DNA from: Eledone cirrhosa
Taxonomy: Eukaryota
Direction of reading: 5' to 3'
DNA: 64,000 nucleotides
Assembly (NCBI GenBank): GCA_964016885.1
Contig: OZ024742.1
Span: 68,262,001-68,326,000, forward strand
The notes beneath the pieces are model-generated. The model searched no databases and had not been told where the DNA came from. It worked only from the letters and a program-made list of their open reading frames with translations. The position numbers were made by a program, and so were the translations under genes. Below, piece after piece: positions 56,535 through 62,491 of the stretch (its first letter is position 1; every line of letters begins with the position of its first letter).

Positions 56535-56584
56535 ATAGATAGATATATATATAGATAGATAGATAGATAGATAGATAGATAGAT
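56535..56584. repeat. (GATA)n tract at the LINE 3' junction
   Basis: Read directly from the sequence. Confidence 0.95.
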
Positions 56585-56798
56585 TTCTTTATTTACCATA
56601 AAGGCATAAAAAGAAGGGACAAATACAAAGGGGGAGTTTACATATAATCGAGTAAAAAGGGTGTAACATGAAAATAATCGAAAATAACCTCAAAAGGGAG
56701 GGGACGTGATGGGGGTTGCACACACCCCCCAAAAAGTGTGCAATCCTTTGCCCGGGGAGCACATGGAGAAGGTGCTCCCCTCTCCTTTACTTCTTTAC

Positions 56799-59700
56799 CT
56801 ACAGGATGGTATACAGAGAAGGCCCATTTACACGAGCCATTCTCGCCACTATCACCCACCTTTCATAAAACTGCCTGTGGCCAAGCACCTCTCTCTCCAT
56901 TCTTATCCTTCTTCCGAAGTGATATCGGAAGAAGTAGACCAGACTATGGCCAGAGAGGAAGTTGCCTGACCTCAGACCTTTCAATCGTGTCCACCAAACA
57001 ACCTCTTTCAACATGGCTATTACGCACAGAAAAACCGCCTTTGCTTCCTTTGTGAAGAGGGGAGGCGGTTTGATTGTCATCACGGACTCGGCTGTCAATT
57101 TAATCGGCGCCACCCGCGACAGCAGTTGTTCGGCGTAGCCCCACAGATCAGCCACGCCCGGACATTGCACCAATGCGTGCGCCACGGTTTCTTCGTGACG
57201 CACGCATCTAGGGCAAATCTTTTTTGAGGGATCCCTGCCCGGGCGCCCGTGTCTGTAGAGCCTCTCTCGAACGGGTAGAGCCCCTCGGTAGCACTGCCAG
57301 GCCAGTGACTTCTGGAAGTTGTCCATTGGTCCTGGGCCGAAAGTCCTACCGAACAGGCTGGCCAGTTCGTCTTCTTCCATGTCCAGCGACTCTCCAAGGG
57401 TGTCATCGCCCCTGCTAGCCACCAGCCCTCTATAGAATGATGAGGTGGATTCTCCACCGATGGCCCGGCCCGCTTGCCAGAGAGCCCTGAGCGCCTGAGC
57501 ACATTCAGTGTGCCAGTCTCCCAGTTTTCCGGATCTTTGCTTGACCCAGGACTGTAGCTCGGTGAGTGAGACGAGTCTCGGAAAGGCTCGTTTCACGAAC
57601 GGAGCCCACACCGGTTGACCAGTGAGGAATACCTGTAGGTGCCGTAGCCTTAATGCGTGCCTACGCATCATCAACCACGGCATCCCCAGCCCTCCTTTCG
57701 AAGGTTGTTGGCAGCAGATGGATCTTCTCACCATAGGAGGACGCTTCTTCCAAAGAAATTGGAAGAGCATGCGTTCCATGGTGGTGAGTGTTTCCTTAGG
57801 GCAAGGCACGACAGTCAGGCGGTAGTAAGTGACGGACGCTATGTAAATGTTCGCCACCTCCGCCCGGCCTTTTAGGGACAGCTTACACTTGGCCCATTTC
57901 TGGGTTAGTGCAAACACCTTGTTCGTAACCTCGTTCCAGTTCTTTTCCACCTGGAGGTCCGGTCCAAACCAGACCCCAAGCAACTTTACCGGGCCCTCCG
58001 TCCAGTGTCCGACGACACCATCGGGAGGCATCGGTCTGCCTCTCCACGTTCCGAGTTGCAGCCCGATGGATTTTTCCCGGTTCAGTTTCGCTCCTGACAA
58101 CCTTTCGTACTCCTCCAGTAAGGTACCGATCGCCTCGATCTCCGAGTCGGTTGATACCATTACTGTTACGTCATCGGCGTAGGCCGACACCGCTTTGCTC
58201 AATCCTGGTTCCAGGGGGATACCCTGCAACAACTCCAACTTCCTCAGTAAAGGCTCGAGAGTCAATACGTACAGAAGGGAGGAGAGAGGGCACCCCTGTC
58301 GAATGGATCGTGTGATTTCGAACGGCTTCGAAAGGTAGCCGTTCACCTTGATCCTAGAACAGATGTGGTTGCTATGTAGGGCAGTGATCCAGCCTCTGAA
58401 AACAGGACCGAACCCAGCCGCCGCTAGCACCGCATCCAGGTAACCATGGTCGACCCTATCGAAGGCCTTAGACTGATCCAAGTTGATCAGGGCCCCACCG
58501 AAGCCGGGTTTGTTGCCAACCCTCTCTATGATGTATCGCATGAGGTGGAGGTTATCGTGAATGGACCTGGATGGGATAGCACATGTCTGCGCATCTCCCA
58601 CCAGGCCACCCACGACAAGCGCCAACCTCTTTGCTAACACCTTGGCCAAAATCTTTAACTCTGTGTTTAGCAGGGTTATGGGCCGAAAATTATTTATACT
58701 ATCCCCCTTGTTCTCGTCCTTCCTCACCAGCGTGACTACGCCCTTGGCTACAGAACAAGGAATTCTCCCGTTCTGCTGCCAATTGCAGTAGACCGCTTCG
58801 AGGAGTTCGGAGAAGAAGACCGGCATTGCTAAATAAAGTTCGTAAGGTATACCATCGAGACCTGGAGATTTGCGTCTGCTGCATTGGCTCAGCGCATCTC
58901 CGATCTCATCAGCCGAGATTGGTCCCTCGCAGGACTCCGCCTCTTTGTTCGAGAGACGCGGCAGGCCGTCGAGGTATGGACCGAAATCCACGCCCCGGCC
59001 CGGACCCTCGCCTCCCCCGAACAATCGGGCAAAGTGCTTTTGAAAGGCCTCGCACATCTGCTTAGGCTCCCGGATCACTCGTCCATCTTCGTCTTGCAAC
59101 GACCGGATGGTGGATCGATTTCCACTTTTAGCTTCTGTCACGCGGGCCCATCCAACGGCTTTGGCCCCCTCATTACCTAGAGCACGTATTTTACTTCGAA
59201 TGACGCAGCCTTCATGCTTTGCATCGAAAAACTGGTTCAAGGCCGTCCTCGATGCCAGCACTCTGGCCACATCTTCGCTCTTGATTGCCTCTTCTAATTT
59301 ACCTGTTAATTCTTTCTCGTTTCTATTCCTATTGGCAGCTAACATCTTGCTATAACTTATTGATTCTGTTCTAATCTCTCTTTTGAGAGATGCCCACCAT
59401 CGGTTGTTGACGATTGCACCCGTCAACCTCTCCTTAACTAATCTGCTAATCCGGTTTCTGTAAGTCTCTTTTGCCGGTAAAGACAAATTAAGTTTCCAGT
59501 AACCGGGACCCTGTCTATGTGTTTTCTCGAGATTGACCACGCAGGTCACTAATTTGTGATCCGTGTAGCCAACCGTGCGCATTTCTGGACAGCTTAATAT
59601 GTCCCTATCCTTACTTCTAACTAAGAATCTATCTAAGTACGATCTAGATTGACCACTGTGGTTTCTCCAAGTCCAGGTAGGCACAGTTGGAAAATCTAGT

Positions 59701-60269: not shown

Positions 60270-62147
60270 CTACCTTTCCGCTTCCCGGGGTTCGGGTTGC
60301 ACGACTTCCATGGGGTTGGGGGTGTTGGGTGAAGGGGTGTCTTGTGGTGGTGTGGGGTCGTCGGTGTGTGGTGGGGTTGGGGTGTTTGGAGTTGTGTTGG
60401 GGAGGGGAAGGGGAGGGGGAAAGCTTTTTAGTAGGACGCGGTTTATGGGTTTGACAGAGGGTGGTCCTACGTCCTCCTTAAAATCCTTTTTTAGTTTTTG
60501 GTAGAGGTTCATTGGGATTTTTATTAGTTTTAAATGTGGGTGGTTTTCTGATGAAACAAAGTTTACACCTTCGGTTTGTACCGAAGGATTATTGTATATG
60601 AGTTCATTTAATTTATTATTGTTTCTGTTGATGTAAGTATAGTGTAATGTCTTTTTTTCCGATGGTGTGAGTGTTTCGAAGAGGGGAGGGGCAGGTTTGG
60701 TTTTGTTTGTTGCTGGAGGGGTGTTTTCTGTTTTGTTAGATTGTGTTGCGATTTGGGTGGGGGTTGTTTGTCCTTGTGTGTTTTGCACATGTTTTCTTTT
60801 TTTCCTTTTAATCTGTCTGAAGGACTCCGTTTCTTCCTCCGAATTCGTTGGGTTATCTTCAGTGTTGGAGGGAAGAGGTATGTTTGCTGGTAATGTTTCC
60901 GTGTTGGTTTTCTTTGTGGGGGAGATGGATGTCACTATGTTAGACTGTGTTGTGTGTTGTGTCTGCGGTGGTTGTGTTGTTTTATTGAGTGAGAGGTTGG
61001 GTGGGCCTGTATTTTGTTTTGGGGTAATGTGTTGTGACTGTTTGTGTTGTGGTGGTGTTGTGGTGTTACTGAGGGACGGGTTGGGTGGGACTGAGTTTTG
61101 TTGTTTGTTTATCTGTTGTGGTGGTGGTGGTGGAGCTGGTGTTGGTAGCAGGGTTTTCTTTTTGTTGAGTTGGGGACAAGCGGCCTTCAGGTGCCCTCTG
61201 CCTGCACAGATATGGCAGGACGGCCTTCTCCCCTCCACGCTAATGTTTATATACCCGTGGTCCTCTAATAGGATTCTGTCGGGTATTTGGGCGATGCGTT
61301 CAGGCTTCATTTGTACTACCAGCTCTATACCTGTTCCACTGAACGCATTGCCTGTGGTTTTCCCAATGGAAATCACGTTGTCATTCACTGGATCGATGAA
61401 GCCAGCTATGAGCCAGCAGTAGTCCACATCTGGCATCATTGCATCCAGCCATATGCGTTGAGTTTTTTTTCCCATATAAGATGGATAAAAGGTGAAATTT
61501 TTCGAACGAATCGGTGACAAAGCACATTTTTTTGCCGCTGATTCGTTCTTCATGATAATTGCTAGGCTTCCATACAGTCTGTCTTTTCTTATGAAAGTTG
61601 TTTCATTCAGTACTTCTGCGAGTACTGTTTTGATATCTGCTTGAGAAGGCTGTTCAGGTTTTTTTGTACTGTTGTTGATGGTCCGAAACTTGACCGTTCG
61701 GCTTTCAATGTCTTTCGTGAATTCTTGAGGCATTTTTACCAATAAAATACCATTCTCACCTTCACTTATGTATTGTTTTGCGTCCGTGATCCTTCGTACC
61801 ACATCTGAAATGTTTTCCGCTATATAAGTCAAAGATTTCTTTGTTTTCTGTGCAAATGAAATCTTGTCGTCTGCTTTGTTTTCTGATATTATGTTATTTT
61901 CAACTGTTATTTTTTTGTTTGTTGTGTCTTTGTTTGTGTTATTAGTATTGTCATGCAATTTTTCAAATTTTTTTTCTTCGTTGTTTTCGACATTTAATTT
62001 TTTCTCCGCAGATTCGTCCGTTTTTATTTTCATTTTTCCTTCCTTCTCTATGACGTTAGTTGGGAAGGAAGGGAGGACTAAAGCGTGCGAGCTTACAACT
62101 CTTACCGCTGTCCCCCCACCACTATTTTCGTTCGCTGCGTTTAACAT
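60270..62147 (-). CDS. LINE ORF1: gag-like nucleic-acid-binding protein (625 aa)
   Basis: CHICAGRGHLKAAC zinc knuckle followed by a long P/T/Q/N-rich tail; lies directly upstream of ORF2. Confidence 0.9.
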   Translation of the reverse strand: MLNAANENSGGGTAVRVVSSHALVLPSFPTNVIEKEGKMKIKTDESAEKKLNVENNEEKKFEKLHDNTNNTNKDTTNKKITVENNIISENKADDKISFAQKTKKSLTYIAENISDVVRRITDAKQYISEGENGILLVKMPQEFTKDIESRTVKFRTINNSTKKPEQPSQADIKTVLAEVLNETTFIRKDRLYGSLAIIMKNESAAKKCALSPIRSKNFTFYPSYMGKKTQRIWLDAMMPDVDYCWLIAGFIDPVNDNVISIGKTTGNAFSGTGIELVVQMKPERIAQIPDRILLEDHGYINISVEGRRPSCHICAGRGHLKAACPQLNKKKTLLPTPAPPPPPQQINKQQNSVPPNPSLSNTTTPPQHKQSQHITPKQNTGPPNLSLNKTTQPPQTQHTTQSNIVTSISPTKKTNTETLPANIPLPSNTEDNPTNSEEETESFRQIKRKKRKHVQNTQGQTTPTQIATQSNKTENTPPATNKTKPAPPLFETLTPSEKKTLHYTYINRNNNKLNELIYNNPSVQTEGVNFVSSENHPHLKLIKIPMNLYQKLKKDFKEDVGPPSVKPINRVLLKSFPPPLPLPNTTPNTPTPPHTDDPTPPQDTPSPNTPNPMEVVQPEPREAER

Positions 62148-62384
62148 TTCTGTTAGACGATTGAAATTTTTTACACAAAATTTTTTTTTTTAAAACAGGT
62201 TTTTCACCTCTAGGAGGGGTAAAGATGAGCTGACCCACCGCCTGACAGTTCAGACGGAGGGTCAAGCTACACAATTGTATCAAAATTAAGTTTGAACTCA
62301 TAAAATTTCCTCAATAAATTTGAACAAAACTTCTGTGCGAAGTGAATGACATCCACACTGTAGAACAGACGACAGCTAGATTAT

Positions 62385-62491
62385 GATAGATAGATAGATA
62401 GATAGATAGATAGATAGATAGATAGATAGATAGATAGATAGATAGATAGATAGATAGATAGATAGATAGATAGATAGATAGATAGATAGAT
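62385..62491. repeat. (GATA)n tract at the LINE 5' junction
   Basis: Read directly from the sequence; about 26 units. Confidence 0.95.

Follow-up and report, generated by a model that had tools for sequence, protein, structure and literature searches.

The DNA analysed here, referred to as the window, is a stretch of 64,000 nucleotides (nt) from Eledone cirrhosa (contig OZ024742.1, 68,262,001 to 68,326,000). On its minus strand, at approximately 62382-56582, lies a long interspersed element (LINE) of 5.8 kb, in which both open reading frames (ORFs) are open. The plus strand carries (GATA)26 at 62385-62488 and (GATA)7 at 56554-56581, in the same orientation and adjoining the two ends of the element. 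These are the only plus-strand runs of at least three GATA units in the window; beyond them, runs of this kind occur just twice, as short stretches of 3 and 5 TATC units at 447-496. The 3′ end of the element reads AATAAA-GAAA-TC and continues at once into TATC repeats, poly(A) being absent. The original prediction had described an intact L1/Tx1-type element, abutted in the same orientation by the only two long (GATA)n tracts and passing from AATAAA-GAAA into (TCTA)n without poly(A). The sequence bears this out, with TC preceding the TATC repeats. The position given (56535..62491) is right as a location, but that span includes both repeat tracts and is longer than the element proper. From the locus and its relatives in the genome, we propose that this is a young L1/Tx1-type element whose copies lie preferentially in (TCTA)n, likely because its own apurinic/apyrimidinic-like endonuclease (APE) chooses the motif TATC^TAT(C/A)T. 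We put the probability of this reading at about 0.78. The locus is composed as follows.

62385..62488, minus strand: 5′ flanking (TCTA)26 tract; it makes up the target upstream of the element and holds the 5′ copy of the target-site duplication, which is not delimitable inside pure repeat.
62148..62382, minus strand: 5′ untranslated region (UTR); copies of the family begin near AATCTAGCTG, and each copy differs in the few bases that separate this start from the tract.
62147-60270, minus strand: ORF1, 625 residues, open.
ORF1 residues ~125-335: predicted RNA-binding region, followed by a low-complexity P/T/N/Q tail.
61220-61170, minus strand: CX2CX4HX4C knuckle of ORF1 (residues 310-326).
60236-56799, minus strand: ORF2, 1145 residues, open, with APE endonuclease, reverse transcriptase (RT; YADD) and C-terminal CCHC finger.
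59517..60236, minus strand: APE domain of ORF2 (residues 1-240), with N10, E39, Y112, D141, N143, D202, D226 and H227 present.
59672-59640, minus strand: hairpin loop of the APE domain, T189-S199.
57972..58703, minus strand: RT domain of ORF2 (Pfam RVT_1), residues 512-755.
56582..56798, minus strand: 3′ UTR, ending in AATAAA (56593-56588), GAAA and two subfamily-specific bases, without poly(A).
56535..56581 (repeat at 56554-56581), minus strand: 3′ flanking (TCTA)7 tract, which decays into TA/TCTA and comprises the 3′ copy of the duplication and the remaining target.

ORF2 begins 33 nt past the stop of ORF1. It matches the Pfam families RVT_1 (E 5.8e-27) and Exo_endo_phos (E 5.8e-8), and zf-RVT just under the cut-off (E 7.9e-6). 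Among solved structures the best match is human L1 ORF2p (E ~1e-43), followed by R2 proteins (E ~1e-19), with no other groups appearing, which places the RT nearer to L1 than to R2. Two ORFs, with APE at the N-terminus of ORF2, RT and a C-terminal CCHC finger, are the architecture of the L1 group, to which we assign the element on its predicted domains. The residues listed for the APE domain are presumably equivalent to known catalytic sites. In the L1 endonuclease D145 and H230 are named as catalytic (PMC1950540). For ORF1, Pfam gave a sub-threshold zf-CCHC match (E 0.32) and no match to Transposase_22; look-alikes in the ESM Atlas are CCHC-type and ZCCHC3-like RNA-binding clusters (score 0.87-0.91), which are leads only. 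Tx1 elements have an ORF1 of the RNA recognition motif (RRM)/CCHC type rather than Transposase_22 (PMC5203782; clade context also from PMC3747384). The ORF1 found here fits that type by its CX2CX4HX4C knuckle and lack of Transposase_22, its RNA-binding region being a lead only, and membership of the Tx1 clade is likely from the architecture. A quick RT tree gives most of its deep forks weak support, and the single protein in it that is labelled 'Transposon TX1' (P0087) does not lie next to the window element. The predicted fold of the 3′ UTR does not stand out from those of shuffled sequences (z -0.91).

The last 25 bases of the element have 1,459 exact matches in the 3.0-Gb genome and a 22-base motif of its 5′ end has 754; the reversed controls have 0 each. 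Sampled copies are 92-99.8% identical to the window element, and both ORFs are still open in 3 of 46 near-full-length copies. Among close homologues just one bears a name, that from Argonauta hians (68% identity). Judged by its sequence, the window element is an intact, young and recently active L1/Tx1-type retrotransposon.

The share of full-length copies is high, both in the flank sample described below (51/73) and by the genome-wide counts of exact 5′ and 3′ ends just given. Large internal deletions between intact ends occur in L141, L149, L158, L159, L079 and L138. Near-identical element sequence is also present in runs X1-X6, from three organisms and three studies. A metagenome scan returned distant relatives only (80 loci, 23-42% identity); a TCTA tract of at least 16 bp is found in none of them, and a single one (L272) has a microsatellite close to its end.

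The genome-wide flank count used minus-strand 5′ ends only, the plus-strand rows listing each copy several times. The sequence TCTATCTA lies within the 22 nt directly upstream in 324 of these 375 ends. Flanks were then scored in the first 74 of the 1,459 3′-end matches in positional order. One of them (L176), whose match is limited to 25 bases and lies in a (TA)n tract, was dropped, leaving 73. A copy scored when the 30 nt of 5′ flank nearest the junction held at least two TCTA units, and 20 evenly spaced 10-kb stretches (L191-L210) served as background. Initially 42/50 full-length and 13/23 truncated copies scored, compared with 0/50 and 1/23 in the opposite orientation. L142 was reclassified as a full-length copy with a later insertion and a clear duplication, after which the counts are 43/51 full-length, 13/22 truncated and 56/73 in total. 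In the background, 0.36% of positions have two or more units within 30 nt upstream. Tx1 families are regarded as target-specific when more than 20% of their flanks are of one sequence type (PMC4494074); both the genome-wide count and the sample far exceed this share. Had the 5′ flanks of further copies been random, the original prediction would have fallen; they are not, those of truncated copies included.

The tracts are of modest length (median 4 units upstream, 2 downstream), and the 3′ ends are nearly always followed by the motif. Twenty-two of the 74 copies sit behind another family tail; leaving them out gives 36/51 (before the L142 correction). The coverage of (TA)n in the background is ~70 times that of (TCTA)n, yet only 3 of 73 insertions lie in (TA)n (background 5.2%). 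Among the 18 copies without two units, again before the correction, 7 have a single CTAT(C/A)T, 3 lie in (TA)n and 8 have neither. These eight comprise the full-length L142, L189 with a 19-bp duplication at a TATAT site, L080 with a 6-bp TCTATC match, and five with none of these. The family prefers TATC^TAT(C/A)T strongly and is not strictly specific, some copies being in (TA)n, at a lone motif or at no motif. The (TCTA)n specificity predicted at the outset holds as a strong genomic preference, but not as a strict restriction to the microsatellite.

Target-site duplications other than pure repeat are found in 28 copies. They are 13-23 bp long (median 19), with 25 of the 28 between 15 and 21 bp; together with the 5′ truncation of 22/73 copies, they are footprints of target-primed reverse transcription. 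The insertion-site consensus is TATC^TAT(C/A)TNT. Several duplications contain unique sequence (e.g. L132, L153, L155, L163, L174, L189), and as repeat and unique sequence stand on both sides of the element, the motif was there before the insertion. After GAAA, one subfamily has TC and another TA; sister families carry CA, TT, TG or GA, and TATCT comes next in all. Since the two bases vary by family and TATCT is constant, the element contributes only GAAA and two bases, the third base being the first that is identical to the target. Judging by sites whose match to the repeat ends a little further on, the first nick would fall inside TC^T^A^T^CT on the top strand.

The tail motif common to the family and its sisters occurs 35,358 times in the genome (reversed control 72). 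It continues as NN-TATCT in 14,998 cases, as NN-ATTAT in at least 10,991 (a narrower pattern) and into a 72-bp satellite in 350 exact cases, with ~9,000 tails unclassified. Pieces of ORF2 from TCTA-group sisters (73-84% amino acid identity) occur in 4 of the 20 background stretches (L197, L198, L202, L206), so that the radiation accounts for a sizeable share of the genome, and the background figure errs on the conservative side. Members of the ATT lineage (L243, L249, L254, L256, L258; C1 at ~1.06-18.3 Mb) end in GAAA-NN-(ATT)n and are 53-60% (APE) and 68-75% (RT) identical to the window element. They often stand head to tail with ~6-kb spacing and form at least two branches with different 5′ halves. 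As the lineage is heterogeneous, most of its 5′ junctions are not placeable. In the 8 of 20 loci where placement by eye succeeded, (ATT)n lies upstream of five full-length copies, four of them behind another tail, and of two truncated copies; the eighth has one short ATTATTAC match. In three further loci (L353, L356, L359) a related tail leads into CCATGG, TCATTTTGG or CCATTGG, and the sequence beyond is alike and not microsatellite; these may be ATT sites that have degenerated within another repeat, or else a fourth target.

In the satellite family, the satellite is found on both sides in 10/10 loci (L341-L350). Its ORF2, open in L341, L344 and L345, is 79% identical to that of the window element. 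There is a tandem array at C1:4,222,000-4,260,000, and many copies are near contig ends. The 5′ junction is fixed ~67 bp, about one unit, downstream of the position of the 3′ junction; this points either to a near-whole-unit duplication or to a satellite unit carried at the head of the element. The TCTA and satellite families come out of quick trees as a single branch (Shimodaira-Hasegawa-like approximate likelihood ratio test, SH-aLRT, 100) nested among the ATT families. An approximately unbiased (AU) test, chosen after the tree had been seen, rejects ATT as one clade (p 0.019). The order ATT, TCTA, satellite, with (ATT)n first, is suggestive only. We offer tentatively, and at somewhat less than even odds, that these families make up one radiation of octopod LINEs, with over 35,000 copies, whose endonuclease target switched at least twice in one genome lineage, from (ATT)n to (TCTA)n to the 72-bp satellite, all uncatalogued as Tx1 targets, and that a few fixed APE differences (e.g. 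LCQ versus PSR/VSR at residues ~61-63, and the hairpin tip) encode the switch.

In the mechanism that we propose, the APE would nick the GATA strand at TATC^TAT(C/A)T and the nicked end would prime reverse transcription, a step in which its pairing with the UAUCU-type end of the element RNA probably assists. A second nick ~19 nt downstream would give rise to the duplication. The RNA would read past AAUAAA into the donor's own repeats, and this would explain the missing poly(A). Each insertion leaves target on both sides, so that family members pile up head to tail. We infer that the endonuclease is the chooser of the target. At -1, a position beyond the reach of pairing for the RNA of the ATAT-tailed (TA) subfamily, C is present in 11 of 13 TATCT sites (background 30%) and in 2 of 4 TATAT sites (background 4%). 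Such conservation to the left of the junction, where that RNA cannot pair, supports recognition by the endonuclease. The APE also differs in families with other tails, by the identities given above for ATT and with ~75% identity for the satellite family. The hairpin loop of an APE shapes nicking, to which RNA-target pairing may add (PMC1950540).

The role of pairing could be larger than this. If the endonuclease were relaxed, accepting AT-rich or flexible steps, the 3′ repeat tail of the RNA could pick the site by pairing with the nicked end, and a target switch would mainly be a tail switch. Tail and target are identical from the third base after GAAA in every family, some insertions lie in (TA)n or at a lone motif, and an L1 with a grafted loop nicked differently and still integrated at T-tracts (PMC1950540), all of which suits such a process. 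The -1 position does not, since C is conserved there in 13 of 17 sites, and unpairable bases are also kept at the lone motifs of L132 and L155; the duplications are of tightly defined length, and a long branch (0.21, SH-aLRT 100) with fixed APE differences parts the ATT from the TCTA lineages. We consider site choice by the tail the main rival, though an unlikely one. The near identity of the satellite-family hairpin to that of a TCTA family, which also fits pairing, bears on our own proposal and is taken up below. The other two explanations that we considered dispense with target choice altogether. Were insertion random, (TCTA)n could be the element's own tail and head, with tracts born by slippage, as the near-constant motif after 3′ ends and the copies behind another family tail might suggest. 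Truncated copies, which lack the head, nevertheless keep the repeat at their 5′ junction in 13/22 cases, and the duplications with unique sequence mark the motif as pre-existing. This tail-only explanation is refuted for most copies and was rejected; we give it next to no credence. Unselective insertion followed by survival or accumulation near microsatellites, or by unequal crossing-over, has in its favour a very microsatellite-rich genome, the tandem arrays and one duplicated site. Against it, the enrichment is confined to one repeat, strand and phase and extends to copies at least 99% identical to the window element, and the far commoner (TA)n is not enriched. Passive accumulation was accordingly rejected as well and appears very improbable.

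Choice of the target by the endonuclease has its own difficulties, and the following points weigh against it. At least two TCTA units are missing from the 5′ flank in 17 of 73 copies. Five truncated copies (L148, L079, L077, L112, L186) have neither motif nor duplication, and for the four of these that were checked the rest of the element is absent from the 10 kb upstream; such copies may stem from deletion at a later time or from insertion without targeting. The rows of the sample are partly non-independent, L153 and L154 being one duplicated site and several others tandem neighbours. The C signal at -1 comes from small numbers and is partly due to sites inside tracts. The logo to the right of the junction is partly circular, as the duplications were found by 3′-flank matching. 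Finally, the hairpin loops of one TCTA-tailed sister (SNRSGTSRSY) and of the satellite family (TNRSGTSRSY) are nearly equal, which leaves that switch unexplained by the loop alone.

Elsewhere in the window, two related open frames of 261 and 212 residues lie on the minus strand at 39980-40792 and 49270-49902 and share the motif IRLSYST; they resemble fragments of Penelope-like elements. At 22972-23807, both strands of a degenerate (CTG)-rich tandem array of 830 bp contain open frames. A minisatellite at 4637-4998 comprises 28 copies of a 13-bp unit at 97% identity.

How APE-type LINEs pick microsatellites is not well understood (PMC3812793), and a loop grafted between distant endonucleases did not transfer specificity (PMC1950540). 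Here, intact and closely related enzymes (~60-80% identical) are associated with three targets, so that swaps could tell apart what the endonuclease and the RNA tail each contribute; the family and its sisters would be a natural test set for target change in such elements. A sizeable share of the GATA and ATT microsatellites in this genome is interrupted by or adjoins LINEs, which matters for microsatellite markers and for repeat annotation.

The targets listed for the Tx1 clade are (TC)n, (TTC)n, (TTCC)n, (TTTC)n, U2, U5 and 5S RNA genes, satellites and transposons (PMC4494074). The main text of that article makes no mention of gata or tcta, and its Fig. 3 and supplements may list more targets. 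A LINE targeting (TCTA)n or (GATA)n was not found in the literature searched, that is, outside subscription journals and Repbase; the original view of the target as undescribed holds for that literature and does not extend to Repbase. In Octopus vulgaris, 13 recently active L1-Tx1 families with 421 insertions are reported (PMC13282606), probably of the same element class, and the window family may be among them or related; the main text of the article does not report their insertion specificity. The nearest parallels are Kibi, in (TC)n, and Koshi, in (TTC)n, of teleosts and, in crocodilians, the Tx1-1_Crp group, found in (TTCC)n or (TTTC)n (PMC4494074); all are likewise APE-RT LINEs inserting into a short tandem repeat. 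By these target descriptions the window element is set apart, since its unit is TCTA and not a pure pyrimidine repeat, its site consensus is TATC^TAT(C/A)T and its host is an octopod. Waldo, in (ACAY)n, and Mino, in (AC)n, of the R1 clade (PMC3812793) are also APE-type LINEs that target di- or tetranucleotide microsatellites, but they differ in clade and target, the window ORF2 being nearest to L1 among solved structures and of L1/Tx1 architecture. Togen targets (TG)n (PMC4640811). Dong targets (TAA)n (PMC3812793), the same repeat unit as that of the (ATT)n-tailed sister lineage, and for Octopus vulgaris an active Dong-R4 is listed (Table 1 of PMC13282606). Dong belongs to the R4 clade, which has a restriction-like endonuclease (PMC4640811), whereas the ATT lineage, with its APE, would have come to use that repeat by convergence. 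The present families introduce no new principle; they add (TCTA)n, (ATT)n and a satellite to the targets of Tx1-type elements, by a strategy already known from Kibi and Koshi.

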